A stretch of 64,000 bases of DNA from positions 64,001 through 128,000 of the forward strand of contig CAXXGJ010000006.1 of assembly GCA_963677895.2 (NCBI GenBank), in the 5' to 3' direction. The position numbers and the translations under genes are program-made. Positions 36,535-51,978 of the stretch are shown in pieces (within the stretch, counting starts at the first letter, position 1; every line of letters starts with the position of its first letter). This DNA comes from Treponemataceae bacterium. GTDB lineage: Bacteria; Spirochaetota; Spirochaetia; Treponematales; Rectinemataceae. The notes below the pieces were generated by a model that was not told the DNA's origin, did not search any database, and saw nothing but the letters and a program-made list of their open reading frames with translations.

Positions 36535-36553
36535 ATAAACGCAGTACGATTTT

Positions 36554-37513: not shown

Positions 37514-37514
37514 G

Positions 37515-38768
37515 TTATTCTCCTCTCGAGGGATCTATCAGTGCCGGGTAGACGATAGTGCTCCAAAATTTGTCTTCATCAATGAAGTTTTGAATTGCCG
37601 CTTTCCGCGATCCGATCGGGCCCGCATCCTTGGTGTATGCAGTGCTTCTACCGTAATCCTGAGTCATTTCAGCGTTCACATCGACATAGACACCAAACAT
37701 TTTTTGCGGGGTTCCGTCGGCAGGAATGGGGCTGTCGTTCCAGGAAAGAACGATTGTAGGGTCGATGATGTAACCAACGGCTAGAACATCCCAAATGTTA
37801 GAAGGTGCCTTATTCTTATTTTTAAGCAGGAAAAGGTCTCTGAGCCCAGGGTAGGTAGTTTCAAGCACTTTGTCATAAATGGCTTGTGGCATCCCATGGG
37901 TATTGTCGTTGGCTTCCAGCCCGGAGATCATTTGGTTCCCATATATTTTATATGACTCGGAATTCTTGTCACCCCACTGAGCACGGACGGAGATCTTGGC
38001 GGCGTCTGGATCGGCCCACCAGTTGAACTCGGCAGCGGCAGATGAATTCCCTTTCAAGTAAAATGAGCCTCCCATATAGACGATCTCTTTCACTTTCGAA
38101 GGCAGAGTAGGATCTTTCATGATCGCTCTCGCAATATTAGTCGCAGGGCCGATCGCTGCGATGGTCACTTCCCCTGGGTACTTGTTGACGGTGTTTACGA
38201 TAAAGTCAACAGCATCTGTGTTGCCTTCGGGATCGGGAGAAGTAGGTCCATACACGTATTTATAGGTGGGATCCTTGCCATAGTAGAATTTATACACATC
38301 TTGCCACTTGGCCATGGGGTCAGTGTCGATACCGGTGTTTTTTTCGGGGTATTGAGCCTTCCGGAGGTACCCTGCGTATCCTACAGGCCCGGTTATCGCC
38401 AGTTCTGCGCTCAACACTTCAGGAATGGCGCGACTGGAACGTATACCGTAGCGGCTGCCTTCATAAATAGGTACTTTCGAGCCAATGATTTCTAGTTGAC
38501 GAACGCCAGAGGAGACACCATTGGGCATAGAACGGTTCCCTGCAACGACAGTAACGCCAAGGAGTTCCGTTTCAGGGGATTGATCGAGGACAATCATGGC
38601 GATTCCGTCATCAAAGCACTCAACCATGTCTGTGTCGAGGATCACTTTTCGCGCAGAGGCCTTCTTCACTTGCCAGCTGGCTTCCTGAGCGCCAACCACG
38701 GATACAAAGCACAGCGCGATGATAAGGCAGAACGCCTTAGTCCAGAAGCCCTTCATCATTTTATTCAT
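37515..38768 (-). CDS. Nucleoside hydrolase (IUNH family) with an N-terminal signal peptide
   Basis: ILDTDMVECFDDG, AIGPATNIA, YMGG, AAEFNWWADPDAA; signal-like MNKMMKGFWTKAFCLIIALCFVSVVGA. Confidence 0.88.
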   Translation of the reverse strand: MNKMMKGFWTKAFCLIIALCFVSVVGAQEASWQVKKASARKVILDTDMVECFDDGIAMIVLDQSPETELLGVTVVAGNRSMPNGVSSGVRQLEIIGSKVPIYEGSRYGIRSSRAIPEVLSAELAITGPVGYAGYLRKAQYPEKNTGIDTDPMAKWQDVYKFYYGKDPTYKYVYGPTSPDPEGNTDAVDFIVNTVNKYPGEVTIAAIGPATNIARAIMKDPTLPSKVKEIVYMGGSFYLKGNSSAAAEFNWWADPDAAKISVRAQWGDKNSESYKIYGNQMISGLEANDNTHGMPQAIYDKVLETTYPGLRDLFLLKNKNKAPSNIWDVLAVGYIIDPTIVLSWNDSPIPADGTPQKMFGVYVDVNAEMTQDYGRSTAYTKDAGPIGSRKAAIQNFIDEDKFWSTIVYPALIDPSRGE

Positions 38769-38823
38769 ATGCCTTCCTTTGTATTGATCATGCGATCAAT
38801 GCTCATTGAGATACATTCTTAAT

Positions 38824-38839
38824 AGCAAAAGCCATGCCA
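38824..38839 (-). promoter_or_regulatory. Sigma54 (-24/-12) promoter
   Basis: TGGCAT-GGCTT-TTGCT versus consensus TGGCAC-N5-TTGCW, about 55 bp upstream of the hydrolase ATG. Confidence 0.8.
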
Positions 38840-38995
38840 GACGGATAGAATTCTATTATGAATAAGTGAACCGGTTTTCATTGAAGATTTGAGTCCTGAA
38901 ACGATCAAAAAACCATAAGCTTTAGTCAACCAGAAAGAGGTTGTTGCCGGAGCTAAACGGAAGAAAAATTTTTGATAAAATCCATGTATTTTTTT

Positions 38996-39033
38996 TTACC
39001 CACGTGAGTAATGAATGGGTAATTAGTTACACA
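38996..39033. promoter_or_regulatory. Candidate enhancer (UAS) sites for the NtrC-type regulator
   Basis: Two adjacent near-palindromes, TTACCCACGTGAGTAA and TGGGTAATTAGTTACACA, about 160-190 bp upstream of the sigma54 promoter. Confidence 0.5.
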
Positions 39034-39154
39034 ATCACGGAAACATCAATCGTAGACTTATAAAGCACTTCACATAGCATATTCTTCAGGAGTAAAACTA
39101 GTTTAGTACCGGTTAGGATATCATCGATAAGTAAGAATAGCGGGCAAAAGAGAA

Positions 39155-39410
39155 CAGATTCGCTTCAATAGTCACGGCATCGCGTCCACGAGGTGCCAGG
39201 ACAAAATCCATTTCATTCCCCTCCTTATCGACGCGATTATATTAGGTACGAATGGCGTTCCAAACGAAAGAATTCGAGCACATCCCAGGCTCAAAAGGCT
39301 TCCCTCCACTCCGAGTTGTCCCTATCGTCGCGCAGTTTGGAGAGTTAGAAGCAGGGAAACCCTACCGAAACAAACCGCTTCGTTCTGTCCCCATATCCAA
39401 GAAGATCCAT
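39155..39410 (-). pseudogene. Relic of an AAA_14/DUF4143 ATPase gene
   Basis: Manual translation gives EWREAF*AWDVLEFFRLER and, in another frame, DKEGNEMDFVLAPRGR...IEA; both resemble this family, with stops and a large internal deletion. Confidence 0.5.
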
Positions 39411-39699
39411 GTTTTTTAACAAAGCAACGTAAGCTTGAGCTAAGCTTTGTATCCAACGATGTATATCGCAAAATTTCACCGACATCTCCCGACGTATCGC
39501 AAGTTAGGTTTCACTTAGTCATGACAAAAATGAAAGTGGCATAAGCAATTCGTGAGTGTAAACAAGATAACGAGATGAGCAGAATTTACAAGAAAAGTAT
39601 TTAGGTAAAGACGAGAAAACTCGATTCTTTACCTATAAATTTTTTCCGTCGGTCCTGTTATCCTGTCAAAGATTCTCTTTCTCCGGTATTATCCACGTA

Positions 39700-40974
39700 A
39701 TGCCTACTATTCAAACCTATACGGCTATCATCATCGGCGCTGGTCCCGCTGGCCTCTTCGCCGCCATTCGACTCGCCGAAACCATCGGCGGCGGCGAGGG
39801 CATCCTCATTCTCGAGCGCCGCGAGAAGCCCGCCCGCAAGCTTCTTCTCTCCGGCTCCGGCCAGTGCAACCTCACCCACGCGGGGGAAATCGCCGACTTC
39901 CTCGGCCGCTACAGCGGCGGAGTGAAGGCCGAATCGGCCGCCCGCTTCCTCAAGCCGGCCCTCTACGCCTTCACCAACGAGGAACTCCTCGCCTGGTTCA
40001 GCGCCAAGGGCATGGAATTCGAGACCGAGGATTCGGGCAAGATATTCCCCGCCGACCGCCGCGCCACCTCCGTTCTCAAGATTCTCCAGGATGAAGCCTA
40101 TCGCCTCGGCCTGCGCATCGTCGCGAATAGCCGCGTCAGCGGCATAAGCGTCTCCGAGGGCTTTCTTGTGCGGGTGGAGTCGGAAGCTTTCGAATATCGC
40201 GCCCCGATCGTCCTCATCGCCACGGGAGGGCTGTCCTACCCCAAGACCGGCAGCACGGGCGACGGCTACGCGCTCGCGGCCTCCCTTGGGCACCGCATCG
40301 TACCGCCCAGGCCGGCCCTCGCGCCCGTTTACATCAGGAATTTCGCGCTCAACCCTCTCGCGGGGCTTTCCTTCCATGACGCGGGCCTTTCGGTGCTGCG
40401 CGTGGGCAAACGCGTCTTCTCAGCCGAAGGCGATCTTCTCATAACCCACGAAGGCCTCTCGGGCCCTCTCATCCTCGACGCGTCGCGCCATATCGCGCCG
40501 GGCGACAGCCTCGAGGTCAATTTTGTCGATGTGACTATTGAGGAATTCCGGAACCGCCTCGACGCCGAGCTTAAAACCAACCCCCGGCGCCTGGTCCGCA
40601 CGGCCCTCGCCGATCTCGGCCTGACGAAAAACATGGCTGAACTATTCTGCGACCTTTCAGGCGTGACCAAGGAAGAAACCGCGGCCGCCCTTCCCCGCGC
40701 CAAGCGGGATGCTCTGTGCCGCTTCGCCTGCGCCCATCCCTTCTACGTGGCGCGCCTCGGCACGCTTGAGGTGGCCATGGTCACCGCGGGAGGCGTCGAT
40801 CTCGCCGAAGTGAATCCCGGCAGCATGGAGTCGCGCCTGGTCCCCGGCCTTTTCTTCGCGGGCGAGGTCCTGGACATCGACGGCGACACGGGCGGCTACA
40901 ACCTTCAGGCAGTCTTCTCGACCGGATCGCTCGCGGCCGAGGCTATGGCTAAAAAGCCGCGCGTCGATAACTAG
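39700..40974 (+). CDS. HI0933/YhiN(BaiN)-family flavoprotein
   Basis: IIGAGPAG, KLLLSGSGQCNLT, ATGGLSYPKTGSTGDGY, THEGLSGP, VTAGGV, GEVLDIDGDTGGYNLQ. Confidence 0.92.
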   Translation: MPTIQTYTAIIIGAGPAGLFAAIRLAETIGGGEGILILERREKPARKLLLSGSGQCNLTHAGEIADFLGRYSGGVKAESAARFLKPALYAFTNEELLAWFSAKGMEFETEDSGKIFPADRRATSVLKILQDEAYRLGLRIVANSRVSGISVSEGFLVRVESEAFEYRAPIVLIATGGLSYPKTGSTGDGYALAASLGHRIVPPRPALAPVYIRNFALNPLAGLSFHDAGLSVLRVGKRVFSAEGDLLITHEGLSGPLILDASRHIAPGDSLEVNFVDVTIEEFRNRLDAELKTNPRRLVRTALADLGLTKNMAELFCDLSGVTKEETAAALPRAKRDALCRFACAHPFYVARLGTLEVAMVTAGGVDLAEVNPGSMESRLVPGLFFAGEVLDIDGDTGGYNLQAVFSTGSLAAEAMAKKPRVDN

Positions 40975-42002
40975 GCGTAGTAGCGCGCGAGGTCGTAGGG
41001 CGGGAAGATACCCTTGTCGGTGACGATGCCGTCGCAGAGTTTGGGCGGGGTGATGTCGAAGGCGGGGTAGAAGCCGTGCACGCCCTGCATGGCGGTGCGG
41101 ACGCCCATGGCTTCGAGGACGTCGTTCTCGTCGCGCTCTTCGATCTTCACCGTGTCGATGGTGGGGTGCTGGCGGTTGGGCGAGCCCGTGCAGAAGTAGG
41201 GTATGCCCCAATAGCGCGCCGCGAGGGCGATCTGGAAGGTGCCGACCTTGTTGACGATGTGGCCGTCCATGCAGATGACGTCGGCGGCCGAGGTGAAGAC
41301 GTCGACGTGTTTGGCTTTCATGGTGTAGCCGGGCATGTTGTCGGTGATGACGGTGACGTCGAAGTCCATGTCGCGGACGACGCTGGCGGTGAGGCGGGCG
41401 CCCTGGAAGTAGGGTCTGGTCTCGGGGCAGATCACTTTGATGGTCTTGCCTCGGCTCCGGCATTCACGCAGCATCATGCCGACGATGGTTTCCGCGAAGC
41501 ACTGGGTCATGACGGTGCCGTCGTCGGGGAACTGGTCGACGAGGTATATCGTGCTCGCGGCGCTGCGGGCGTAGCGTTTGTTCACCGCGTCGATGGTGTG
41601 CTCGAAGACGGCCTTGTCGGGCGCCTTGCCGGCGGCTTTCGCCTCGATGGCCACCTTGGCGCAGGCTTCGGTGATCGTGGCCATTTTTTCGGCCGTGGTG
41701 GGGCGTGCGTGGGAGATTTCGAAGGATGCCTTGGCGATGCGCGAGGGGAAGCTGCCTTTGTCGTCGCTGTCTATGGCTTTGGCGGCGAGGGCCATGCCCA
41801 TGCCGGCGGCCACGTAGGGGCCTCCCGACTGGGTGACCATGGCTTTGATGGCCGCGATCACATCCGCGTAGGTTTTGCAGGTGACGTATTCGATCCTGGC
41901 GGGATAGACGCGGCGGTCGAGGATGCGCACCGCTTCGCCGTCGTACCAGGCGACGTTTTCGTACTTGAGCATGAAGGCGAGGTCTTTGTCCTGTCGTTCC
42001 AT
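40971..42002 (-). CDS. mtnA: Methylthioribose-1-phosphate isomerase (eIF2B-like)
   Basis: LDRR.YP, ARPT, ETRPYFQGARLTA, ITDNM, NKVGT, YPAFDITPP; divergent TQCFAET in place of THCN.G. Confidence 0.88.
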   Translation of the reverse strand: MERQDKDLAFMLKYENVAWYDGEAVRILDRRVYPARIEYVTCKTYADVIAAIKAMVTQSGGPYVAAGMGMALAAKAIDSDDKGSFPSRIAKASFEISHARPTTAEKMATITEACAKVAIEAKAAGKAPDKAVFEHTIDAVNKRYARSAASTIYLVDQFPDDGTVMTQCFAETIVGMMLRECRSRGKTIKVICPETRPYFQGARLTASVVRDMDFDVTVITDNMPGYTMKAKHVDVFTSAADVICMDGHIVNKVGTFQIALAARYWGIPYFCTGSPNRQHPTIDTVKIEERDENDVLEAMGVRTAMQGVHGFYPAFDITPPKLCDGIVTDKGIFPPYDLARYYA

Positions 42003-42071
42003 AATCGCTCCTTGAATATCGTCCGGAAAAAGCCGAGGCTCGCGGCCCCGGCGCCGCGGTTCCCCCGCGCG

Positions 42072-42716
42072 TTAATCAGGCAGGCCCAACCGGGCTTTCA
42101 TGGCCTTGACGGCCTCTTCCGGAATGGTCTGGATCTTGCCGGCGCCGAGGGCGAGGGAATAGATCTTGGCCGCGTCCTCGACGTAGATGGCGCGCAGATG
42201 GGCTTGTTCGATGGTGGAACCGACGGCGACGGCCCCGTGGTTGCGCATGAGGCAGGCATTGCGCTTCGCAAGGCTTTCGACAACGCGTTCGCCCAGGGCC
42301 ACGGTGCCAGGCATGGCGAAGTCGGAGACGGGGATGTCGCCGCCTATGTAGGCCAGCATTTCTATGAGGATGAGGGGGATGGGCATGCAGGTGACCGCGA
42401 AGCTCGTCGCGTAGGGCGAATGGGTGTGGACGACGCCGAAGATGTCGGGGCGTCCGTTCATGATGGCGGTGTGCATGCGCCACTCGGATGAGGGCCGGTG
42501 CCTGCCCTCGACGATGGATCCGTCGCTCATCCTTATCACCATGATGTCGTCCAGGGTCATCTTTTCGTAGCGGAAGGAGCTCGGCGTGATGGCCAGGAGT
42601 TCCTTGGCCTCGTCGCAGGCGCTCAGGTTGCCGCTCGTGCCCGCGAAAAGGCCTTCGTCGTAGGCCATGAGCGTGTTTTCGAGCACTTTTTCCTTCAATT
42701 CCCTTATCGTCAGCAT
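42072..42716 (-). CDS. Class II aldolase (FucA-like; Ald2 of the DHAP shunt)
   Basis: GTSGNLS, ITPS, PSSEW.MH, VHTHS, LMRNHG; start MLTIRELK at 42716. Confidence 0.88.
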   Translation of the reverse strand: MLTIRELKEKVLENTLMAYDEGLFAGTSGNLSACDEAKELLAITPSSFRYEKMTLDDIMVIRMSDGSIVEGRHRPSSEWRMHTAIMNGRPDIFGVVHTHSPYATSFAVTCMPIPLILIEMLAYIGGDIPVSDFAMPGTVALGERVVESLAKRNACLMRNHGAVAVGSTIEQAHLRAIYVEDAAKIYSLALGAGKIQTIPEEAVKAMKARLGLPD

Positions 42717-43957
42717 AGGTTCCTCTTTTCGCGTAGCGATGCGTCGACGAGCGCGCGCAGAAAGTCGCGGCCTTCCCGGTAGTTCCGGCGGTCTTTTATG
42801 TAGGCCTTGGCGGCGAGAACGACGATCCTTTCGGCTCTCGCCCTGGCCTCGGCTGGTTCTATGGAGGTGAGGTCCTTCACTTGGGCCACGCCCACGGCTC
42901 GGCGGATCATCTCGAGTCCGGCCACGCCCGCCGTATCGGCTATGATAGTCGAAAGAAACCATTCGGCGTAACCGGGGGTCCTCCCCATGGGGTCGGTGGC
43001 GCTCGTTTTGTAGAGCGCGAGGAATTTCGCCTTGAAGAGGTCGACGGTGGCGACGATGGTCTCCTCCAGCCAGCCGATGTAGCTATCCTTGGTGGCGGCG
43101 CCTGTGGCACCCTCCCCCATCGTGACCCGGGCGTTGGCCCAGGCGAAGCAGAAATTGCCGATGACGTTGCCGACGTCGTAGCCTATGGGGCCGAAGTAGG
43201 CGAATTCGGGGTCTATCACCTTGGTGGAGTCTTCCCTGACGAAAATGGAGCCCGAATGGAGGTCGCCGTGGATGAGGGCCTGGGCGTCGTTCATGAAGGC
43301 ATACTTGAGCTTGGCCACCTCGAGATGGAGTTCGGTGTCGGAAAAGAGCTCCTCTTGCGCGAAGGCCGCGTTGGGCGGGAAGACCTTGGTCCGCCCCGGC
43401 TTGTTGGTGTAAGGCTCGGTGTAGACGAGCTGCTCGGTGATGGCGCAGAGCGGCGGGTTGGTGTAGCGCTTCACGAGCTCCTTCTTCTTGCTTGGGTCCA
43501 TCACCATGTCGAGGGTGGGCACGAGGGTCTTGGCCATGAAGTCGCTGATATCTTCGGCGAGCCTGGGAAAGATTTTGTGCCTTATGAGCTCGTAGCGGAG
43601 GATGACGTGGTCGGAGAGATCCTCCATGGAGAGGCAGGCCATCACGGGGTCGTAGTCGTAGACTTGGGGCACGAGGCCGGGGGCCAGCTCGCCCTCCATC
43701 TTGAGGATTTCCGCCTCGATGCGGTTGCGGTCGAAGCCGAGGGTCCGGGAGCCCGAACGCGTGTCGGCGTCGGCATGCTTGACGATGACGGAATCGCCGC
43801 TGTCCGGATCCCTCACCCTGAAGATGAAGTTGATGTTGCCGTCGCCGATCTCCTTGGCCTCGAGCCGCTTCGATGCCGCGAAGCGGGGGAGTCGGTATCG
43901 GGCGTATTCGGCCGCGTCGGCCTCGCCCATGCGGAAATGGCTGTCGAATTTCGGCAT
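42710..43957 (-). CDS. mtnK: S-methyl-5-thioribose kinase
   Basis: EIGDGNINFIF, MEDLS, LCAITEQLVYTEPY, LIHGDLHSGS, IDPEFA.FGP.G.D; start MPKFDSHF at 43957. Confidence 0.93.
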   Translation of the reverse strand: MPKFDSHFRMGEADAAEYARYRLPRFAASKRLEAKEIGDGNINFIFRVRDPDSGDSVIVKHADADTRSGSRTLGFDRNRIEAEILKMEGELAPGLVPQVYDYDPVMACLSMEDLSDHVILRYELIRHKIFPRLAEDISDFMAKTLVPTLDMVMDPSKKKELVKRYTNPPLCAITEQLVYTEPYTNKPGRTKVFPPNAAFAQEELFSDTELHLEVAKLKYAFMNDAQALIHGDLHSGSIFVREDSTKVIDPEFAYFGPIGYDVGNVIGNFCFAWANARVTMGEGATGAATKDSYIGWLEETIVATVDLFKAKFLALYKTSATDPMGRTPGYAEWFLSTIIADTAGVAGLEMIRRAVGVAQVKDLTSIEPAEARARAERIVVLAAKAYIKDRRNYREGRDFLRALVDASLREKRNLC

Positions 43958-43977
43958 AGCTGCGTCCTTCCCCTTCC

Positions 43978-44976
43978 TCAATTGTCGCTGGTGCTGGAGT
44001 AGTAGGTGGAAGCGAGGGCCAGGGCGAGCACGACGCCCTTGACCGCGTTCAGCGAATAGTAGGGCACCGACATCATGATGAGGCCGTTTTCCAGTATGCC
44101 CACGAGGGAGGCTCCCACGAAGGTGCCGAAGGCGTTGGGCTTGCCCGCGCCCGCCACGGAGCGTCCGATGAAGACGGCGGAGATGGCCGGCATGGCGTAG
44201 CCGGCGGCGCCCTGGATCTGGGCCGACATGTTGCGCGAGGCGACGAGGACGCCGCCCAGGCCTATGAAGGCCGCGGCGAGAAGGCCGGCGTAGACGCGGT
44301 AGCGGTAGATGGGTATGCCCGAGAGGCGCGCGGCTTCCTTGTTGCCGCCGACGGCGTAGATGTAGCGTCCGTACTTGGTGTAGGTGAGGAATATGTGCAC
44401 CACGACGACGATGACGATCATGATGATGATGATGGTGGGCGCCTGGCCCATGTTCTTGAAGGTCTGGGAGATCTTGCCCAGGGTGTCGGCGCCGTTGGGC
44501 CTCGGCATGCCTTCGGAGAGGGCGCCGCCGCCCGAGTAGGTGAGGCTGAGCCCGTCCAGCATGAACATCATGGCGAGGGTGGCCAGGAGGTCGGGGATCT
44601 TGAATTTGACGATGAGGAGCATGGTGATCATCATCAGGCCCATGGTGAGGACAAGGGCGAGGGGAATGGCCAGCCACATGCTCATCTGGTACCAGACGAT
44701 GAAGCTGATGACGAGGGATCCCGCCATGGAGGCCATCGAGCCGGAGGAGAGGTCGAAGCCTCCCACGGCGAGGGTGATGGTGAGGCCGATGCCGATGATG
44801 GTGGTTATCGAGATGGACCTCAGGATGGTGATCATGTTGCTGCTGGTGAGAAACATCTTGGGCATGCGCAGGGCGAAGAACGCGAATACCGCGACGAGGG
44901 CGATGAGGGATGCCCATTTTCCCAAAAAGTCCGAGGCCTTGCCCTTAGGCATGGCCGTGGCTTCCGCTTTCGACAT
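43978..44976 (-). CDS. Sugar ABC permease (candidate methylthioribose/5-deoxyribose uptake)
   Basis: GGFDLS, IPDLLATLA, GRYIYAVGGNKEAARLSG; TAATG coupling with the ATPase gene. Confidence 0.9.
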   Translation of the reverse strand: MSKAEATAMPKGKASDFLGKWASLIALVAVFAFFALRMPKMFLTSSNMITILRSISITTIIGIGLTITLAVGGFDLSSGSMASMAGSLVISFIVWYQMSMWLAIPLALVLTMGLMMITMLLIVKFKIPDLLATLAMMFMLDGLSLTYSGGGALSEGMPRPNGADTLGKISQTFKNMGQAPTIIIIMIVIVVVVHIFLTYTKYGRYIYAVGGNKEAARLSGIPIYRYRVYAGLLAAAFIGLGGVLVASRNMSAQIQGAAGYAMPAISAVFIGRSVAGAGKPNAFGTFVGASLVGILENGLIMMSVPYYSLNAVKGVVLALALASTYYSSTSDN

Positions 44977-46499
44977 TATTTGTTGCCCCCCGTGGCGTAG
45001 AATAGGATTTCTTCTTCGGTCGCCGTCCCTGTAGGGAGTTCGGCGACGACGCTGCCGTTGTACATGATATAGATCCTGTCGGTGATGGCCAGGATCTCGT
45101 TGATTTCTGACGAAGCGTAGAGCACGGCCTTGCCCTTGCCGGCGAGGCCCTGGATCAGCTGGAATATGTCGCGCTTGGCGCCCACGTCGACGCCCTTGGT
45201 GGGCTCGTCCAGCATGTAGACGTCGGAATCGGAGGTGAGCCACTTGCCGACGGCCACTTTCTGCTGGTTGCCGCCGGAGAGGAACTTCAGGCGCTGGTAC
45301 ACCGAGGGGGTTTTTATGCCCAGTTCGGAGACGAGGCGCTTGGCGTTCTGGATTTCGAGGTGCTTTCTCACGAAGGAAAACCTATCGCAGAATTTTCCGA
45401 GGCAGGCGGCGGAGAGGTTGAAGTAGACGGGTTCGGTGACGAGGACGCCTTCCTTGCGCCTTTCCTCGGGCACGAGGGCGATTTTCTGCCGCACCGCCGT
45501 GGTAGGGCTGCGTATCGCGAGCGCCTTGCCCTTGAGGCTGACCTTTCCGCTTTTCATCCTGTTCGCGCCGAAGAGGAGCTTGCAGAGTTCCGTCTTGCCC
45601 GCGCCGACGAGGCCGCAGACGCCGACGATCTCCCCGCTTCTGACGTTGAAGGACACGTTCTTCACCTTCCCCGCTTCGTCAAAGAGGTTCGCCGCCTCGA
45701 ACATGACGTCGCCGATAGCGGTGGGGATCTTGGGGAAGTTTTCCTCGAAGCTGCGCCCGAGCATGAGGTTGACGATCTCGCGGGTGCTGAGGTCCTTGTC
45801 CACTATCCGATTGGCCACCACGGTTCCGTCCTTCATGACGGTGAGGCTGTGGCAGATCTGGAAGAGTTCGGGGAGGCGGTGGGAGATGAAGATGACGCCC
45901 ACGCCTTCCTTTTCCGCCAGGTCGCGGACTATCCTGAAGAGTTCCTCGACTTCGCCCATGCTCAAGGGGGCTGTGGGTTCGTCGAGAATGAGGAAGCGGC
46001 AGCGCTCCCTCACCGCGCGGGCGATGAGGACCATCTGCTTTTCGGCGAGGGTGAGGCTGGATACCTTGCGGGACACGTCGATGTCCATGTGGAGGCGTCC
46101 GAGGATTTCCCTGGCGGATTTCCTCATCCTGCCCCAGCGGATGATGGACTTGCCCTTCATGCCGGTGACGAGGCTGTTGAACATGATGTTTTCGGCCACC
46201 GAGAGGTAGGGAAAGAGGGCCGTGTCCACTTCCTGGTAGACGAGTTCGATGCCGAGCATCTTGGCGGTGCGCGGTTCGCGGATCTCGCGGGTTTCGCCGT
46301 CGATGAGGATGCTGCCGGTGTAGCCGGCGTTGGCGCCCGCGAGCACTTTCATGAGAGTGGACTTGCCGGCCCCGTTGGCGCCGACGACGGCGCGGATTTC
46401 CCCGCTTTTCATGGAGAAGTCCACGCCGCTCAGGGCTTTGACGCCGGGGAATTCGATGCTGATGCCTTTCATCTCGATGCTGCTGACTGTTTGGCTCAT
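44976..46499 (-). CDS. Sugar ABC ATPase with two NBDs
   Basis: GANGAGKST, DEPTAPL, GLVGAGKTE, LSGGNQQK, DEPTKGVDVGAK. Confidence 0.93.
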   Translation of the reverse strand: MSQTVSSIEMKGISIEFPGVKALSGVDFSMKSGEIRAVVGANGAGKSTLMKVLAGANAGYTGSILIDGETREIREPRTAKMLGIELVYQEVDTALFPYLSVAENIMFNSLVTGMKGKSIIRWGRMRKSAREILGRLHMDIDVSRKVSSLTLAEKQMVLIARAVRERCRFLILDEPTAPLSMGEVEELFRIVRDLAEKEGVGVIFISHRLPELFQICHSLTVMKDGTVVANRIVDKDLSTREIVNLMLGRSFEENFPKIPTAIGDVMFEAANLFDEAGKVKNVSFNVRSGEIVGVCGLVGAGKTELCKLLFGANRMKSGKVSLKGKALAIRSPTTAVRQKIALVPEERRKEGVLVTEPVYFNLSAACLGKFCDRFSFVRKHLEIQNAKRLVSELGIKTPSVYQRLKFLSGGNQQKVAVGKWLTSDSDVYMLDEPTKGVDVGAKRDIFQLIQGLAGKGKAVLYASSEINEILAITDRIYIMYNGSVVAELPTGTATEEEILFYATGGNK

Positions 46500-46596
46500 T
46501 CGTTACCCTTGCTCCGATGGATGGGCTTTGGGGGGCGGCCGCCGCGCGCGGCGGCCGCCCCCGGAGCCCCTTTGCTTCTGTACGTTGGCGCCGGGC

Positions 46597-47679
46597 TTAT
46601 TTGACCCCGGCCGCCTTTCTGATTTCGGCCATCCAGTCGGTGATGTTGTCGACATTGAGGCCGTAGCCGGGGATTATGGTGCCGAGGTTGGTGACGTTGG
46701 CGGCCGGCGTCAGCTGGGTAGCGAGTATGACCGAGGGCTGGAGGATGTATTCGGGGGGCGTGGTCTCGCCGTTGAGTTTCTGCGAGAGGAGGCGGACCGC
46801 CGAGATGCCGATGTTGGGGAAGTGCGTGGCCACGCAGGCTTTCCAGATCTTGTCCTGGGAGCGCATGAAGTTGATGTCCTGGTTGGAGATGTCGATGGTG
46901 ACGAGGGGGATGTCGCTCCTCCCCGCTTCGATGAGGGCCTTGTAGGCGCCGCGTGCGTAGGCGTCATAGGCGCTCCAGATCACGTCGACCGTTCCCTTGG
47001 GATACTTGGGAAGGATGGAGGACACGACGGTGGCGATGGAGCCTTCGGAGTCGGCGGGGTTGGAGGGGCCCAGCACTTCGAGGGTCTTGATCTTGCCGGC
47101 TTCCTCGAATTTCTTGTAGGTTTCCTGTCTCCTGTCGAAGGGGGGGATGCCGGGGCCGCGCCAGAGCTTGAGCACTCTGATGGGTCTGGGTCTGTCCTTG
47201 AGCAGGTCGTCGACGATGTAGTCGAGGGTGAGGCGGGCCATTTCCTGATCGCTCTGGAACATGGTGGTGACGCCGGGGATGCCCTTGCCTGACGCGTCGG
47301 CGATCACGGTGTCGAAGGTGACGACCTTGATGCCTTTGGCGACGACGTTCTTTACGAGGTCGTAGGAATACTGGGGCTTGCCGTGGGAGATGATCATGCC
47401 CTGATAGCCCTGCTGCGCGCACTGGTTGACGATGTCCTGGAAGCGGATGTCGTCTCCGTCCGCGGTGAATACGTCTACCTTGATGCCGTAGAGCGCTCCT
47501 TCCTTGATGGCGGCGTCGAATGCCATCTTGAAGATTTCAGTCGATGTCCCGTTGAGTACATAGGCGACTCTGTACCCCTTCGACTTGAACTGCTGACCGA
47601 TCTGCTTCGCGTCGGCGCTGGTGAACAGCAGCACCGAAACGAGCGCCATGATCGCGAGCATTGTGGTCGTTTTCTTCAC
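46597..47679 (-). CDS. Sugar ABC substrate-binding protein
   Basis: Signal peptide; periplasmic-binding-protein motifs (ISHG, VVTFD, YDAYARG, IDIS). Confidence 0.85.
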   Translation of the reverse strand: MKKTTTMLAIMALVSVLLFTSADAKQIGQQFKSKGYRVAYVLNGTSTEIFKMAFDAAIKEGALYGIKVDVFTADGDDIRFQDIVNQCAQQGYQGMIISHGKPQYSYDLVKNVVAKGIKVVTFDTVIADASGKGIPGVTTMFQSDQEMARLTLDYIVDDLLKDRPRPIRVLKLWRGPGIPPFDRRQETYKKFEEAGKIKTLEVLGPSNPADSEGSIATVVSSILPKYPKGTVDVIWSAYDAYARGAYKALIEAGRSDIPLVTIDISNQDINFMRSQDKIWKACVATHFPNIGISAVRLLSQKLNGETTPPEYILQPSVILATQLTPAANVTNLGTIIPGYGLNVDNITDWMAEIRKAAGVK

Positions 47680-47719
47680 AATCTGCCTCCTGTTATTGCA
47701 TGGACACGTTCGCGTGTCC

Positions 47720-48658
47720 CTAAGCCCTGAAAATCTCGAGAGCGGCCTCGGCCGTCTTCTCGTCGGTGACGATGCCCGATATCAGCTTGCCCCTGATGGC
47801 GCCCACGATGGGCAGGACCTTGTCCTCTCCGTAAGCCACCGCGGTGACGGGGCAGCGGAGCGGGACGTCGGCCGTGACGGAGCGTTCTTCCACGGCGGAG
47901 GGGATCCTGGCGCCGTCCAAGGTGAAGAAGTGGGTGAAGACGTCGCCCACGGCGCCCTGGGCGGCCAGGTTTTCGGCGTCCTGTGCCGTTATGAAACCTC
48001 TGGAGATGAGGACGGAGTTCTTCACCGAGCCCAGGCCTATCATCGCGCAGTCCACGGCGTTGGCCATGGCGAGGATAGAGGCGAGGACGTGGTCGTTTCT
48101 CATGATGTGGGCCGTTTCCTTCGTCGAAGCGATGGCCGGCGCCCAGATATGGAAATAGTCGACGCCGAGGCTTCTGGAGAGGAGAATGCCGCTCGAGCTG
48201 GGGTTTGTGGCGTTTACCGCGTAATTGGGCATGGTGGAGCCGGTGAGGGAGACGATCCTTTTGACGGTCATCTTTTTAGGGGCTTCCACGAGGGAGAGGC
48301 TGGCGGAGAGGGCGCGGCTCGACCCGAGGCCGATGCTTTCGTATTGCCTGCACATGTCGGCGAATCGCAGGGAGGCGGCGTAGGCGACGTTGCCCGCCGC
48401 GCTGCCGTCGTTGGGCACGATGGTGATGTCCGTGAGGCCGGTGGCTTGGGAAAAGTCCTTCTCGAGCTCGAAGAGGGACACGTAGCACCTGGCTATCTTT
48501 ATTTCGACGATTTTCTTTTCGCGGATAACCTTGAGGAGGCGGACAACCTTGATTCTCGGTATGCCCAGGAGGTCAGCGATCTGCTGCTGGCTCTTGTCTT
48601 CGTAGTAATAGAGCCAGGCTATCCTCGTGAGCAACGAATTGTTCAAATGTTCATCCAT
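47720..48658 (-). CDS. SorC/DeoR(Bs)/LsrR-family sugar-phosphate-responsive repressor
   Basis: IAWLYY....QQQIA..LGI.R.KV.RLL HTH; sugar-binding domain GAVGD, K...I.GA.RG....IVTDE.TA. Confidence 0.9.
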   Translation of the reverse strand: MDEHLNNSLLTRIAWLYYYEDKSQQQIADLLGIPRIKVVRLLKVIREKKIVEIKIARCYVSLFELEKDFSQATGLTDITIVPNDGSAAGNVAYAASLRFADMCRQYESIGLGSSRALSASLSLVEAPKKMTVKRIVSLTGSTMPNYAVNATNPSSSGILLSRSLGVDYFHIWAPAIASTKETAHIMRNDHVLASILAMANAVDCAMIGLGSVKNSVLISRGFITAQDAENLAAQGAVGDVFTHFFTLDGARIPSAVEERSVTADVPLRCPVTAVAYGEDKVLPIVGAIRGKLISGIVTDEKTAEAALEIFRA

Positions 48659-48694
48659 GTGAACAAGTATGTGGTCGGTTTTTCCGGCTGTCAA
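48640..48694 (-). promoter_or_regulatory. Sigma70 promoter with overlapping operator-like motif (probably leaderless transcript)
   Basis: TTGACA-17-CATACT, then TGTTCA-N6-TGAACA-N2-TGAACA across the ATG, which lies 7 nt after the -10 box. Confidence 0.7.
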
Positions 48695-48735
48695 GAAATA
48701 TTTTTAAATAATTCCTGCCTCCGGAACTTTATAGC

Positions 48736-50577
48736 TCACGAGTTCGAAAGGACGCCGGAGAGGCCGAGTTCCTTCATTTTTTCCTTTGTCGGGACTCCGT
48801 CTTTCGTCCAGCCCCGCAGCGCGTAGTATCGGTCCAGGGAGGCTTCGAAGTCGGCGGGGAGGTTCTGGCCGGCCCCGCCGCCCTTGGGTTCGGAGAGGAT
48901 GCGCTTGGGCAGGCGGTCGTCCTTACGGCTGACGCCCCGCGTCACGTTGTAAAGGCGCTTGAGGTTGAAGATGCGCTCGCCGGCTTTGAGGAACTCGTCC
49001 AGGCTCATGCCCCAGCCGGTGGCCGCGTTGATCCACTGGAAGGCCTGGGTGGCGCTGTTGCCTCCGCCGATGGAGAATTTGCATAGCTTGAGGCTGTCCA
49101 CGAGGCTCATGAAGTTCTGGGTGGCGATGACGAGTTCGGGTTTCCGTTCATTGCCGAAGCGGTCCTGGGGGGTGTCGAAGCCTTCCTCCGGGAATGCGAG
49201 TTTGCGTTCGTAGTTGTAGCTCATGCCCTGGAGGTGGCAGGCGCCGCGGTTGGAGGTGGCGTAGGAGAGGGCCATGCTGTTGAAGGCCCTGGGGTCGTGG
49301 CCGGGGAATTCCAGGCCTTTGACGTGGACGGCGTAGTCGGGGCTGCCGAGCCTGAGGCTGGTCTTGGCCACGCCTTCGCCGAGGAGGGCTCCGATGCCCG
49401 TTTTCGTGCCGATGAGGTCGATGAGTTCGACGAGGGCCTTGCCGCTGCCCCAGGTCGGGACAACGCCCGAGAGGTCCTGTCCCCGGATCTGGCCTTTTTC
49501 GTAGGCTTCCATGAGGAAAGCTATGGCGCTGCCGGCCGAGATGGTGTCGATGCCGTAGCGGTTGGCTTTCTCGTTGGCGGTTAGGATGGCTTCTATGTCG
49601 TCGATCATGCAGTTGGCGCCGAGGAGGGAGAGGGTTTCGTATTCGGGGCCTCCGCCGAGGCTGCCGTCGGAGAGTTCGACGACGCGGCCGCAGCCGATGG
49701 GGCACATAGTGCAGAAGAAGCGTTTTTTGAGGCGGCCCGATTCGGTCATCCTCTGGCCTGAGATGGCGGCGATGTCGAGGTCGGCGGCGCCCAGGGCCCA
49801 GTTCTTTACGGGCACGTCGCCCATGTCATAGAAGCCGCCGAGGGAGCCTGCCGTGCCGAATTTGCCCATGGCTTCCGTGGCGGCTGCCATTTTCCTGGCC
49901 ACCTCGCGGGAGGCCAAGCCGAGAGCGGCGGCGTCGTGGATCCTGCGCGGCGCCTTGCCAGAGGGGGCGGCGACCACGGTCTTGAGTTTCTTGGAGCCCA
50001 TGACGGCCCCGAGGCCGCAGCGGCCTGCCATGCGGGCGTCCCTTCCGTCATGGGCGACGCAGGCGATGCTCACCATGCGTTCGCCCGCTACGCCGATGCA
50101 GGCGGTTTCGGAGCCGGGGTATTTCGCGCCGTAGTGGTCGTAGGCGGCGAAAGTATCGAGGCCCCAGACGGCGGCCGCGTCTTCGACGCGGCCGCCCGCC
50201 TCGGTGACCACGAGGGACACGGGCTTGTCGGAGGCGCCGGATATGACGAGAAAATCGAAGCCCGTGTTCCGGAAGACCGAGCCCCAGGCGCCGCCCACGT
50301 CAGACTCGGCGAAGAGGCCGGTCAAAGGCGAGAGGGCCGCCACCTCGTGCCGCCCCGAGGTGGGAGCTGAGGTGCCGCAGAGAGGCCCCAAGGCAAAGAC
50401 GAGGGGATTGGCCGGGTCGAGGGGACCTATGCCGGCCGGCGCCTGGCGGGAAAAGAGCCATGCCGCGACGCCCGAGCCGCCGATGAAGGAGCGAAGCAGC
50501 GGTTCCTCGAGGACTTCCACCGTCGAAGCTCCCGTCGAAAGATCCACGAAAAGCGCTTTTCCGTACGCTATGTCCAT
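48736..50577 (-). CDS. Aldehyde:ferredoxin oxidoreductase family (W/Mo-pterin)
   Basis: SPLTG, GRCGLGAVMGSKKLK, C..CPIGC, GPEYET, GIDTIS, VKGLE.PGHDPR, RGACH, D.LP.R; start MDIAYGK at 50577. Confidence 0.92.
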   Translation of the reverse strand: MDIAYGKALFVDLSTGASTVEVLEEPLLRSFIGGSGVAAWLFSRQAPAGIGPLDPANPLVFALGPLCGTSAPTSGRHEVAALSPLTGLFAESDVGGAWGSVFRNTGFDFLVISGASDKPVSLVVTEAGGRVEDAAAVWGLDTFAAYDHYGAKYPGSETACIGVAGERMVSIACVAHDGRDARMAGRCGLGAVMGSKKLKTVVAAPSGKAPRRIHDAAALGLASREVARKMAAATEAMGKFGTAGSLGGFYDMGDVPVKNWALGAADLDIAAISGQRMTESGRLKKRFFCTMCPIGCGRVVELSDGSLGGGPEYETLSLLGANCMIDDIEAILTANEKANRYGIDTISAGSAIAFLMEAYEKGQIRGQDLSGVVPTWGSGKALVELIDLIGTKTGIGALLGEGVAKTSLRLGSPDYAVHVKGLEFPGHDPRAFNSMALSYATSNRGACHLQGMSYNYERKLAFPEEGFDTPQDRFGNERKPELVIATQNFMSLVDSLKLCKFSIGGGNSATQAFQWINAATGWGMSLDEFLKAGERIFNLKRLYNVTRGVSRKDDRLPKRILSEPKGGGAGQNLPADFEASLDRYYALRGWTKDGVPTKEKMKELGLSGVLSNS

Positions 50578-50587
50578 TTTCGGCTCC

Positions 50588-51562
50588 TCATTCCCCGAGG
50601 GGTTCGATCTCGGCGCTCTTACGCGCCGCCCGGGGGTTTTTCTGCGAAAGCATATACAGAGTGACCGTCGCCATGACGACGAAAGCCCCGAATCCCTGCG
50701 TGAAGGAGCTGATCCCCTCCCCCAGCAGTATCCAGGAAAAGGCAATGGTGCTGGTGAGCCGCCAGGCCTGTATGGTCGAGTAGGTGGCGGCGCCCAGATG
50801 TTTTACCGCGTTGTTCTGAAGGATCGTGCCCAGGAGAAGGACGAGGATGGCGAAGGCCAGGGCGGCCGCTATGCCCGAGAGAGGCAGGGAAAGCCAGGGT
50901 CTCCAGTCTTCGCCGAGGCTGACGCTGCCCGCCGTCATGAATAGGGCCAGGGAGCCGAACTGCGCGAAGGCGAGGGTTTCCGACGAAGCGCCTTTTTTCG
51001 CCGCGTGTTTGATGGAGAGCATGAGGAAGGCGAGGAGGATGCCGCCCAACACCGAAAGGCCGATGCCGATCCAGTTGGCGACGGGGTCCAGCTTCGCCGA
51101 GGAGCCTGAGTTCGAGGCGCCGAAGATCATGAGCAGGGATCCCGCGAGGGAAAAGCAGAGCGCGAGGAGGGTATACTTCGGCAGGGTTTCCTTGAGGAAG
51201 GTCTTGCTGAGAAAGGCCACGATGAAGGGCGCGAGGAGGGAGAAAAGCTGGACGTTGGTGGCGTAGGTCAGGCGGGCGGCGTAGAGGTTGAGCAAGCCGC
51301 GCGACACGACGATGAAGATGAAGCCGAGGAGTTCCTTGAGGCCGATGGTCTTCATGTCGATATTGCGGAACATCATCGCGAGAAGAATGGTCATGGCCAG
51401 GATGTTGGTCACGGCCGAGAGGCTCATGGTGCCTATGTGGTGGCTGTTCTGAAGGTAGCGGGCGAGGACGGGATAGCCGCCCCAGGCCGTGTGGGAGATA
51501 ATGGCGAAGATGACCCAAGCGGTCTTGGGGGTCGCGGAAGCTTGGGCGTGATTTCTGTTCAA
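50588..51562 (-). CDS. DMT/EamA-family transporter
   Basis: Ten-TM repeat pattern, AWG, P...A.L...FLKE, ILLGE; likely TTG start at 51562. Confidence 0.85.
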   Translation of the reverse strand: MNRNHAQASATPKTAWVIFAIISHTAWGGYPVLARYLQNSHHIGTMSLSAVTNILAMTILLAMMFRNIDMKTIGLKELLGFIFIVVSRGLLNLYAARLTYATNVQLFSLLAPFIVAFLSKTFLKETLPKYTLLALCFSLAGSLLMIFGASNSGSSAKLDPVANWIGIGLSVLGGILLAFLMLSIKHAAKKGASSETLAFAQFGSLALFMTAGSVSLGEDWRPWLSLPLSGIAAALAFAILVLLLGTILQNNAVKHLGAATYSTIQAWRLTSTIAFSWILLGEGISSFTQGFGAFVVMATVTLYMLSQKNPRAARKSAEIEPLGE

Positions 51563-51610
51563 TTGTGCATACCTATGTACATATATCTCACCTATTAGTC
51601 CAGCTGTCAA
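51556..51610 (-). promoter_or_regulatory. Promoter with operator-like motif upstream of eamA-AOR
   Basis: TTGACA-N23-TGTACA-N6-TGCACA-N2-TGAACA, the same geometry as at 48640-48694. Confidence 0.65.
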
Positions 51611-51678
51611 GTTTATCTTTTTTTGAGAAGAAAGATAGAACAAGCAATAATCAGATACTAGTTTAGCTTTTTTGATTT

Positions 51679-51978
51679 TTAGCTGAATGCATTTATTTTA
51701 TCGAGTTCGGTTCCAATCTTTTTTTTGGTTTCTCGTATTTCCAGCTCATTCTGAAGATTGAGCCAAAACTTATACGAGTTCCCGAAAAACTTTGATAGAC
51801 GCAATGCCATCTCAACAGTAATTTTTCTCTTGTTATGCAGCAGGTCCAGTACTGTGCTTGTCGATACTTTTAGTTCTTTAGATAGCCTATATGGAGTAAT
51901 ACCGAGGGGCTCAAGGAATTCTTCTCGTATGATTTCTCCTATTGTAGGTGTTTCGATATATTCCTTCGTCATATTCAT
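51679..51978 (-). CDS. higA: HigA-family antitoxin (XRE HTH)
   Basis: GEI.REEFLEPLGIT.Y.L, KR.IT.EMALRLSKFFG.S..FWLNLQ. Confidence 0.9.
   Translation of the reverse strand: MNMTKEYIETPTIGEIIREEFLEPLGITPYRLSKELKVSTSTVLDLLHNKRKITVEMALRLSKFFGNSYKFWLNLQNELEIRETKKKIGTELDKINAFS

Follow-up and report, generated by a model that had tools for sequence, protein, structure and literature searches.

Association of an aldehyde:ferredoxin oxidoreductase with a DHAP-shunt-type gene cluster in Rectinemataceae suggests an oxidative variant of the pathway

In a Rectinemataceae metagenome-assembled genome (MAG; Treponemataceae bacterium), a DHAP-shunt-type gene cluster lies beside a gene for an aldehyde:ferredoxin oxidoreductase (AOR), and this arrangement is likely a new DHAP-shunt variant with an oxidative ending. 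Judging from gene content, promoters and genome comparison, we favor by a modest degree the reading that eamA-AOR and the genes from the regulator to mtnA form one SorC-repressed regulon, by which free 5-deoxyribose or 5-methylthioribose (MTR), both leftovers of S-adenosylmethionine chemistry, would be taken up and converted to DHAP and an aldehyde that AOR would oxidize to the acid. On a bolder and less probable reading, 5-deoxyribose and methylthioribose released by neighbors would become fermentable, with DHAP, H2 and either acetate or methylthioacetate as products. The link between AOR and the DHAP-shunt cluster is the point of interest. It had been proposed in a first-pass annotation of the window (the whole stretch of 64,000 nucleotides that was analyzed), and it gained support here from a common operator, co-occurrence, Fe-ADH/AOR complementarity and a block indel, all beyond what that annotation had; the oxidation of the aldehyde itself is what we infer.

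Results

Nine genes, all on the minus strand, were confirmed at positions 40971-51562 in the order eamA, AOR, SorC-type regulator, sugar-binding protein (SBP), ATPase, permease, MtnK, class II aldolase and MtnA, with family matches throughout, so that the gene set and location of the first-pass annotation were borne out. Its single operon was upheld in its genes and not as one unit: the sequence points to two adjacent transcription units, eamA-AOR and regulator to mtnA, each with its own promoter, rather than to a demonstrated single operon. The genome itself (G000; 3.51 Mb, 3,509,965 bases) is a MAG of 92.8% completeness, and the three genomes of its genus are MAGs that are 92-97% complete. 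Comparisons covered 69 Rectinemataceae genomes and a wider set of 400 sampled genomes of other Spirochaetota.

The eamA promoter, read directly in the sequence, has a -35 hexamer TTGACA (51605-51610, minus strand) and, after a 17-nt spacer, a -10-like GATATA (51582-51587, minus strand); CTTGACA is invariant in 6/6 aligned eamA promoters. An operator-like element, TGTACA-N14-TGAACA (51556-51581, minus strand), follows directly after the -10, and the TTG start codon of eamA falls within its last bases. This element is kept upstream of eamA in G050, G049, G034, G033, G010 and the metagenome locus L118. The gap between AOR and the regulator gene holds the second promoter (48666-48694, minus strand), with TTGACA at 48689-48694, a 17-nt spacer and CATACT at 48666-48671; its hexamers score 10/12 matches and are kept in all seven aligned regulator promoters, both ADH-type genomes included. 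Here the operator-like element, TGTTCA-N14-TGAACA (48640-48665, minus strand), overlaps the regulator ATG at 48658, which would leave the regulator mRNA with a very short leader or none.

Both promoters of the predicted regulon thus carry a palindromic operator-like element in the same layout: CTTGACA, 17 nt, -10, then TGTWCA-N14-TGAACA. The pattern was found at these two sites only in 3,509,965 bases (0.47 expected), and in 2.46 Mb from 184 fetched loci it was found only at regulator and eamA promoters and at one unrelated site; as it was derived from its two sites, only its uniqueness and conservation count as evidence. Alignment of 13 promoters showed 22 invariant columns, and the conservation spans genera.

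The regulator gene (47720-48658, minus strand; 312 aa) encodes a SorC/DeoR-type protein with a Sugar-bind match (PF04198, 118.9 bits) and HTH hits. Its ORF spans 47720-48694, and ATG 48658 is the most likely start; in the relative G050, a stop lies within the upstream extension. The layout, an N-terminal HTH followed by a Sugar-bind (NagB-like) effector domain, is that of SorC/DeoR(Bacillus)-type repressors, and full-length matches were obtained with LsrR (4GO1, 97.6 bits), SorC (79 bits) and B. subtilis DeoR (8R7Y, 74 bits), as well as with E. coli YjhU, which is MtnR (23% identity). Beyond the regulator family, the similarity to B. subtilis DeoR extends to the half-site TTGAACA/TGTTCA: in the available text of PMC11229326, TTGAACA is the half-site contacted base-specifically in the DeoR operator, and it is present in the element at the regulator promoter. 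The DeoR operator described there lies at -60 to -21, whereas the locus analyzed here has one TGTWCA-N14-TGAACA, with an inner TGmACA, downstream of the -10.

The association of the AOR clade with MtnK is both phyletic and positional. An AOR orthologue (at least 65% identity) is present in 8/69 Rectinemataceae genomes, and all eight are among the 11/69 with an MtnK match; none was found in the 58 MtnK-less genomes of the family or, at E <= 1e-180, in the 400 sampled genomes of other Spirochaetota. The co-occurrence check proposed by the first-pass annotation thus gave a positive answer, with AOR directly upstream of the regulator in six of the eight genomes. In genus g21, the orthologue does not adjoin mtnK. 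It is isolated and without the operator in G067; in G068, the gene after it encodes a paralogous SorC regulator (52% identity), accompanied by an FGGY kinase and another ABC system.

Two genomes of a sister clade (G041 and G023) show the order regulator-SBP-ATPase-permease-mtnK-ald2-FeADH-mtnA, with neither AOR nor EamA upstream of the cluster and with no AOR orthologue found in either genome. The order ald2-ADH-mtnA also occurs in a Clostridium MAG (L073), and where MtnA is of the DHAP type (identity of at least 45%), a Fe-ADH lies within the ±10-kb locus in 11/17 cases, versus 1/63 of the other loci. The three Fe-ADHs of the own genome are located elsewhere and are 31-33% identical to the sister-clade cluster ADH, where aligned. 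Fe-ADH and AOR are complementary between the sister clades. In the tree of MtnK, Ald2 and MtnA, the ADH-type pair is sister to one AOR-type clade, so the ADH/AOR contrast is a single evolutionary event and the eight co-occurring genomes are kin. In the genome analyzed here, AOR likely oxidizes the aldehyde to the acid, whereas related bacteria carry an ADH that would reduce it.

A contig that is a 94-95% identical variant (C3) lacks eamA through ald2 as a single block of 9.7 kb (42002-51692 by blastn of C3 against the window), and in its place has one different class II aldolase-like gene, whose protein is 35% identical to Ald2.

These observations bear on the alternative that eamA-AOR is a separate module for aldehyde detoxification or amino acid fermentation that came to lie upstream by chance, with the shunt aldehyde passing to unlinked dehydrogenases. 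AOR-family enzymes accept many aldehydes, and such a module would agree with this range, with the three unlinked Fe-ADHs, with the separation of AOR from mtnK in G067 and G068, and with EamA orthologues that occur without AOR or MtnK in G060 and G061. It is at odds with the operator shared by both promoters and unique in the genome, with the confinement of the AOR orthologue to MtnK-bearing genomes (8/8), with the indel that removes eamA-AOR along with the genes through ald2, and with the absence of the usual Fe-ADH of such clusters exactly where AOR is present, and we consider it unlikely.

The enzymes of the second unit form a DHAP-shunt-type set, as the first-pass annotation had it. The predicted 5-methylthioribose/5-deoxyribose kinase of the MtnK family (42710-43900, minus strand) scores 376 bits with TIGR01767, over the cut-off of 275, and 240.8 bits with B. 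subtilis MtnK (2OLC). The class II aldolase gene (42072-42716, minus strand; PF00596) has a 7-nt overlap with the mtnK end. Its product has no NCBIfam equivalog at cut-off, in libraries that hold no curated Ald2/DrdA model (TIGR03328, the MtnB model, 67 versus 137 bits), and it is called Ald2/DrdA-like by context, the score to B. thuringiensis DrdA (6BTD, 106 bits) being no closer than that to S. pneumoniae FucA (4C24, 113.5 bits). The 69-nt gap between ald2 and mtnA holds a GC-rich hairpin followed by a T-run (42032-42052, minus strand), at the place where the Fe-ADH gene sits in the sister genomes. The MTR-1-P/5-deoxyribose-1-P isomerase (MtnA/DrdI-like; 40971-42002, minus strand) scores 325.9 bits with NF004326, over the cut-off of 271, and is under the TIGR00512 cut-off (187 versus 279); it shares 54-60% identity with isomerases from other DHAP-type clusters and only 25-37% with those of the other MtnK loci in the set. 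MtnB (TIGR03328) over cut-off was found in 0/3 genus genomes, and a search of the own genome (92.8% complete) gave no ARD/MtnD, as the first-pass annotation had noted for the window.

Directly upstream of mtnK, a ribose-type importer is encoded by genes for a periplasmic SBP of the ribose/allose-type fold family (46597-47679, minus strand; Peripla_BP_4, PF13407; N-terminal signal peptide), a monosaccharide-type ATPase with two fused nucleotide-binding domains (44976-46499, minus strand; PF00005 twice; AraG/XylG/RbsA-like) and an RbsC-like permease (43978-44961, minus strand; BPD_transp_2); all equivalog scores are below cut-off, so that the models name no ligand. In Bacillota and Chloroflexota loci, SBP orthologues of 33-52% identity are encoded upstream of mtnK, and an ABC importer is present in 43/80 MtnK loci. 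Neither MtnN nor MTAP was found over cut-off in the own genome, where two weak matches are DeoD-type phosphorylases. This absence and the conserved SBP-ATPase-permease set fit the uptake of a free sugar, as the first-pass annotation had supposed. Its view of the importer and the carbon-source role as an extension of the DHAP shunt does not hold, since both are in print in the available text of PMC6079011, PMC3228920 and PMC10986504, the importer as mtrABC (PMC3228920) and as sugar transporters.

The regulon might instead serve another 5-substituted or deoxy pentose, with AOR oxidizing, for example, lactaldehyde or glycolaldehyde, and the AOR clade would then be a general oxidizer of aldehydes from class II aldolase routes. 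The aldolase, without an equivalog match and as near to FucA as to DrdA, and the SBP, which matches allose/ribose binders weakly, leave room for this. AOR also adjoins class II aldolase/sugar-kinase genes independently in L113, L104 and G068, which speaks for the favored regulon, yet two of these cases leave room for the alternative as well: AOR accompanies an FGGY-kinase sugar cluster in G068 and an FGGY kinase with a class II aldolase in L104. On the other side, MtnK is over a curated equivalog cut-off and the MtnA-like isomerase over a subfamily cut-off, and of the sugars offered to the MtnK/DrdK enzyme tested in PMC6079011 (available portion), 5-deoxyribose and MTR alone were accepted. Such an alternative substrate appears decidedly unlikely.

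The AOR gene (48736-50580, minus strand; 614 aa) starts 7 nt past the eamA stop and encodes a protein of the AOR sensu stricto type (PF02730, 213 bits; PF01314, 418 bits). Among solved structures, P. furiosus AOR (1AOR; 389 bits) comes closest, aligned over residues 6-608, the full length. The motifs CxxCPIGCGR and NRGxCH, which do not vary among 17 clade members, have aligned counterparts in 1AOR; we take their cysteines to be the [4Fe-4S] cluster ligands. As in P. furiosus, the subunit stands alone, with no AorA/AorC-like partner genes adjacent. Unlike the P. furiosus enzyme, it is bacterial, belongs to a predicted sugar regulon and occurs in a genus without a detectable pterin pathway.

The pterin cofactor is a difficulty that the first-pass annotation did not have: membership in the AOR family stood, whereas for activity the genus has no detectable MoaA, MoaC, MoaE or MoeA and no detectable tungstate-type ABC transporter. 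MoaA was not found over cut-off in the own genome (77.6 versus 284 bits), nor were MoaC, MoaE and MoeA_N found there. MoaC was found in none of the three genus genomes (92-97% complete) versus 37/69 in the family, and MoeA_N in none of the three (G000 and two more). In G000, nothing corresponds to the Moco and tungstate-type ABC block of the relative G033, although the flank of that block is syntenic there, within a contig of 131 kb. Cofactor supply by the host genus was thus not detected, which would bear on activity in the host and not on the assignment of the sequence to AOR. Tentatively, the AOR clade may be the dedicated fourth enzyme of a ferredoxin-linked DHAP shunt that replaces the Fe-ADH, with its pterin cofactor coming, in this genus, from the community rather than from the cell's own synthesis. 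That AOR is inactive or conditionally active in the genus, a relic of an ancestor able to make the tungsto- or molybdopterin cofactor, would account for the missing cofactor genes and G033-type block and is very unlikely, given an intact frame under purifying selection (dN/dS 0.13-0.16 across the genus, as in neighboring genes), three AOR-family genes retained in the genome, a conserved promoter and operator, and genomes that are incomplete MAGs.

Discussion

In the regulon that we favor, the SorC-type repressor encoded by the second unit would bind both operators and be released by a phosphosugar intermediate, as SorC-family repressors are; B. subtilis DeoR, of the same family, is described in the available text of PMC11229326 as controlled by the phosphosugar of the pathway it regulates. 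The ABC system would take up free 5-deoxyribose and/or 5-methylthioribose; MtnK, MtnA and Ald2 are predicted to turn the sugar into DHAP and either acetaldehyde or 2-(methylthio)acetaldehyde; and AOR would oxidize this aldehyde to the acid, yielding reduced ferredoxin. Five [FeFe]-hydrogenase-type matches in the own genome suggest that the reduced ferredoxin would be disposed of as H2.

Kinase, isomerase and class II aldolase without MtnB/MtnD, together with a SorC/Sugar-bind-type repressor, recall the DHAP shunt of E. coli ATCC 25922 and Rhodospirillum rubrum (Pfs+MtnK or MtnP, MtnA, Ald2; repressor MtnR, which is YjhU). Unlike that system, no nucleosidase/phosphorylase was found over cut-off here, an ABC importer is part of the operon, and the regulator gene is the first of its operon rather than convergent. 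E. coli makes ethanol/2-methylthioethanol through AdhA/AdhE, whose genes are unlinked, and cannot ferment 5-deoxyribose, whereas an AOR predicted to be co-regulated would handle the aldehyde here. According to the available text of PMC10986504 and PMC12632272, 5-deoxy sugars supplied from outside can serve as a carbon source.

The same three chemistries make up the DrdK-DrdI-DrdA disposal of 5-deoxyribose in B. thuringiensis, and four clusters in a figure of PMC6079011 include putative sugar transporter genes. Ald2 is only distantly related to DrdA (its score with FucA being slightly higher), and the fate of acetaldehyde is not discussed in the available part of that paper. Enterobacterial salvage clusters with the predicted MTR transporter mtrABC likewise link a ribose-type ABC system to mtnK and have a co-regulated ADH gene, ybdH; as the accessible text of PMC3228920 has it, they feed full methionine salvage under MetJ, unlike the SorC-type repressor and the lack of MtnB/MtnD here. 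In E. coli L-fucose/L-rhamnose catabolism, too, a kinase, an isomerase and a class II aldolase yield DHAP and an aldehyde, and the redox balance depends on what becomes of the latter, lactaldehyde being reduced anaerobically or oxidized aerobically (PMC10986504, available text). There the oxic oxidation relies on an NAD-dependent aldehyde dehydrogenase, whereas the predicted oxidant here is ferredoxin, in an anaerobe.

The EamA/DMT-family membrane transporter (50588-51562, minus strand; 324 aa; PF00892 in two stretches) had been proposed to export the acid, and this was not borne out: the connection is one of predicted co-regulation, and the orthologues in G060 and G061 occur without AOR or MtnK. 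That it exports the acid, or some other by-product, would be a guess. The TTG start at 51562 agrees with a stop that breaks the upstream frame extension in G049; the neighbors of EamA in the Atlas are all EamA clusters, and dN/dS of eamA within the genus is 0.22-0.23.

The gene cluster and its importer

The cluster comprises nine genes arranged head to tail on the minus strand (40971-51562), encoding in order an EamA-type transporter, an aldehyde:ferredoxin oxidoreductase (AOR), a SorC-type regulator, a substrate-binding protein (SBP), a double ABC ATPase, a permease, MtnK, a class II aldolase (Ald2) and an MtnA-like isomerase. Every family was confirmed by Pfam and NCBIfam. MtnK scored 376 bits against an equivalog cut-off of 275, and the isomerase lay above the cut-off of the PRK05720 MtnA subfamily; no curated equivalog in Pfam or NCBIfam fitted the aldolase. 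MtnB did not exceed its cut-off in any of the three genomes of the host genus, and no MtnD was found in the host MAG (3.51 Mb, 92.8% complete, 5.5% contaminated), whose contig C6 includes the window. Since the gene families matched and MtnB and MtnD were not found, the gene content described in the first-pass annotation was confirmed at its location, with gene starts slightly corrected because relatives have stops within the upstream extensions. Among the matches listed, those named relatives that came nearest to this MtnK and AOR were Rectinemataceae (Spirochaetota). No RNA data were listed for positions 42000-51700. Contigs of a sequencing run labelled as metatranscriptomic cDNA, for which an RNA origin is only a guess, contained short pieces from a 90-99% similar strain that covered ald2, the ATPase, the SBP, the SBP-regulator junction, the regulator and the AOR.

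The ABC importer had been presented as an extension of the DHAP shunt, in which MtnK, MtnA and Ald2 convert 5-deoxyribose or methylthioribose (MTR) into DHAP and an aldehyde. This did not hold, as such importers are common at mtnK loci and are already in print. An SBP-ATPase-permease set lies directly 5' of mtnK in 43 of the 80 loci of MtnK relatives among the matches listed, from Bacillota, Chloroflexota and Spirochaetota. A part of PMC3228920 predicts that mtrABC, linked to mtnK, transports MTR, a figure legend of PMC6079011 depicts 5-deoxyribose clusters with sugar transporter genes, and growth on 5-deoxy sugars via the DHAP shunt is stated in a passage of PMC10986504. Because of these precedents, neither the importer nor the use of the sugar as a carbon source is novel. 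A repressor of the shunt is also known, MtnR, identical to YjhU (a section of PMC12632272). Its full-length alignment with the cluster's regulator gave 23% identity, and the regulator type, too, is therefore common to both systems. No publication joining AOR with methylthioribose or with the DHAP shunt was found in the literature available without subscription.

A shared promoter and operator architecture probably links AOR to the shunt genes

The strongest result on the AOR link came from the control regions. Between the AOR stop and the regulator ATG lie 77 nt, which contain the regulator promoter (TTGACA, a 17-nt spacer and CATACT) and, after it, TGTTCA-N14-TGAACA overlapping the ATG. The promoter 5' of eamA is built likewise, with TTGACA, a 17-nt spacer, GATATA and TGTACA-N14-TGAACA ending in the eamA start codon. 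The pattern TGTWCA-N14-TGAACA occurs twice in the 3.51-Mb genome, at these promoters only (0.47 sites expected). Six genomes keep the architecture 5' of eamA and seven keep it 5' of the regulator; 22 columns are invariant, and the intergenic DNA around the operators is unalignable between genera. In 184 loci (2.46 Mb), the strict operator pattern was found only at such promoters and at one unrelated site. TTGAACA is the half-site contacted base-specifically by DeoR of B. subtilis, a repressor of the SorC family, according to a part of PMC11229326. A unique, conserved operator shared by both promoters, together with the DeoR half-site, argues for reading the locus as a pair of transcription units governed by a single repressor, which is predicted to bind both sites. 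The shared operator opens the idea to direct testing, with a single regulator, two promoters and a handful of candidate phosphosugar effectors.

AOR stands in place of Fe-ADH within one family

Two other genomes of the family (G041 and G023) carry the same operon with an Fe-ADH, the reductive counterpart, between ald2 and mtnA; they have no AOR orthologue and nothing AOR- or EamA-like upstream of the operon. The same ald2-ADH-mtnA order was found in a Clostridium MAG. Among the matches listed, Fe-ADH was located within 11 of 17 clusters with a DHAP-type isomerase versus 1 of 63 others, indicating that the usual fourth gene is reductive and is missing exactly where AOR is present. The Fe-ADHs of the host genome are only 31-33% identical to the operon Fe-ADH. 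In a tree of MtnK, Ald2 and MtnA, the ADH-type pair was sister to a single AOR-type clade; all of the evidence on the AOR link therefore represents a single evolutionary switch across kin genomes and not repeated evidence.

The proposed co-occurrence of AOR with mtnK clusters was borne out, all cases lying in one family. MtnK was present in 11 of the 69 family genomes and an AOR orthologue (at least 65% identity) in 8, every one of which also carried MtnK. The eamA-AOR-regulator order was kept in six of these eight genomes. At E<=1e-180, no AOR orthologue was found in the 400 other Spirochaetota genomes sampled, and AOR together with EamA occurred in only one of the 80 MtnK loci among the matches listed, a Rectinemataceae MAG. 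Protein-database matches hint at six further contigs that perhaps carry both MtnK and AOR. A metagenome scan with the AOR-clade alignment returned, among the matches listed, mostly AORs of 36-48% identity; the only near matches listed were L109 (62%, partial) and L118 (69%, partial), the latter with eamA and the operator 5' of AOR. No other gene of the set was present at 55 of the 79 metagenome AOR loci among the matches listed.

Two AOR orthologues belong to another genus, g21. One stands alone in its genome (G067), in which mtnK-ald2-mtnA appears fragmentary (L177, G067:C59, 900-2600), with a 69-aa MtnK piece, MtnA in two pieces and ald2 intact, reflecting either decay or an assembly fault. 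The other (L174, G068:C125, 1-7775), at 65% identity, precedes a gene for a paralogous SorC regulator, itself 52% identical, after which come an SBP, an ATPase, two permeases and an FGGY kinase. The promoter of this regulator, CTTGACA, 17 nt, TATATA and TGTACA-N14-CGAACA, is near-identical in architecture to that of the regulator in the window. L174 represents another sugar operon to which this AOR clade is coupled. The g21 placement fits a broader role, in which the clade would oxidise the aldehydes of aldolase-based sugar routes.

AORs beside aldolase and isomerase genes in other lineages

In the metagenome locus L113 (2368-4894), a class II aldolase gene and the start of an AOR gene share 11 nt, and the unannotated L112 showed the same two matches. 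In L104 (9878-17274), AOR is followed by genes for an IclR regulator, an FGGY kinase, an MFS transporter, a class II aldolase and a 2-hydroxyacid dehydrogenase. L113 and L104 represent independent aldolase-AOR neighbourhoods.

AORs also adjoin MtnA-like genes in the metagenome loci L094-L098, L130 and L136. L095 and L098 were rejected as DHAP shunts, being annotated as archaeal ribose-1,5-bisphosphate isomerase/type III RuBisCO clusters. Both (L095, 9974-14262; L098, 775-7082) carry archaeal-type AORs (47-48% identity) directly 5' of the isomerase gene or genes and type III RuBisCO, and L098 has two ribose-1,5-bisphosphate isomerases and a PRPP-synthase-like gene. Both clusters represent the nucleotide pentose-bisphosphate route. 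The same AOR with an isomerase-like match was seen in L094 and L096, which are unannotated.

Cofactor supply and the proposed oxidative ending

One contradiction to the AOR reading concerns the supply of the pterin cofactor. In the host genome, MoaA was below cut-off and MoaC, MoaE and MoeA were not found; MoeA was absent from the other two host-genus genomes too, and MoaC was present in 37 of the 69 family genomes versus none of the three of the host genus. A relative (G033) carries a compact block (L184, G033:C12, 7415-13188) in which MoaB/Mog, MOSC, MoaC, MoaA and MoeA are encoded together with an ABC transporter of the tungstate/molybdate type. The DNA flanking the block is syntenic with an interior stretch of contig C12 of the host MAG, but the block itself has no counterpart anywhere in that MAG.

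There are three possibilities: the cofactor genes may have escaped assembly in all three MAGs, the cofactor may be supplied from outside, or the AOR enzymes may not be active. The host genus retains three AOR-family genes, and the operon AOR showed a dN/dS of 0.13-0.16, indicating purifying selection as for its neighbours (eamA and the regulator computed from their true starts, as upstream ORF extensions hold stops in relatives). Comparison of AOR with G033 revealed an in-frame stop within the matched stretch. This separate puzzle would bear on the sharing of metal cofactors in communities.

The AOR link has good comparative and regulatory support, against which stands the contradiction over the cofactor. 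AOR would plausibly mark a novel form of the DHAP shunt, for which no account in print was found, with the oxidative ending put forward in the first-pass annotation as its predicted last step. Neither MtnN nor MTAP was found over cut-off in the host genome, the weak matches being two DeoD-type phosphorylases; this would be compatible with uptake of the sugar in free form. The same genome gave five [FeFe]-hydrogenase matches, which could provide a sink for reduced ferredoxin. Every cell makes 5'-deoxyadenosine and methylthioadenosine, and many excrete the sugars. If the reading is true, ferredoxin-linked aldehyde oxidation and hydrogenases would allow strict anaerobes in syntrophic communities to live on waste sugars, and AOR-family enzymes would gain a defined physiological substrate in bacteria.

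Export of the product by EamA, as previously suggested, was unsupported. Pfam, NCBIfam (35.7 vs 230 bits) and Atlas assigned only "EamA/DMT". In two genomes (G060 and G061), orthologues lie beside an SDH_alpha-like gene, RpiR and an Opp-type ABC transporter, which gave no functional lead, and since orthologues occur without AOR or MtnK, no specific export role is indicated.

A variant contig and the mosaic surroundings

The bin also includes an 11.8-kb contig (C3, locus L180) that represents, over positions 1-5750, a 92-95% identical variant of window positions 26430-53228. In this contig a single, different class II aldolase-like gene takes the place of the entire 9.7-kb stretch from eamA through ald2; it encodes 223 aa with 35% identity to Ald2 and lies directly 5' of mtnA. 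This behaviour as one block adds to the case for the AOR link. C3 keeps mtnA (97% identical) and both flanks; kinase, importer, regulator, AOR and EamA are all absent from it. C3 either stems from a sister population binned together with the host or is a second copy. A contig of another sequencing run (X7) carries regulator, AOR and eamA contiguously in another population.

A low-GC block on the minus strand (27548-39659), absent from C3, encodes a nucleoside hydrolase (IU_nuc_hydro, 37515-38768, minus strand) with a signal-peptide-like N-terminus, a ribose-type SBP, an ATPase, a permease, a PfkB kinase, a sigma-54 response regulator and a second SBP and permease, together with a joined ORF of an ABC ATPase domain and a histidine kinase (29634-31511, minus strand). 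The block looks like a nucleoside/ribose scavenging island beside a 5-deoxy-sugar regulon, and the whole neighbourhood looks devoted to nucleoside and pentose scavenging.

The region is mosaic. GC content ranged from 0.29 to 0.67 in 2-kb steps over positions 1-64000, climbing sharply from 0.48 to 0.64 near position 40000, and an IS110-family transposase gene is located at 21895-22995. A low-GC HigA/Xre-like HTH gene (51679-51978, minus strand), with no partner toxin gene seen, lies just 5' of the eamA promoter; the X7 contig joins 51621 to 52046 without it.
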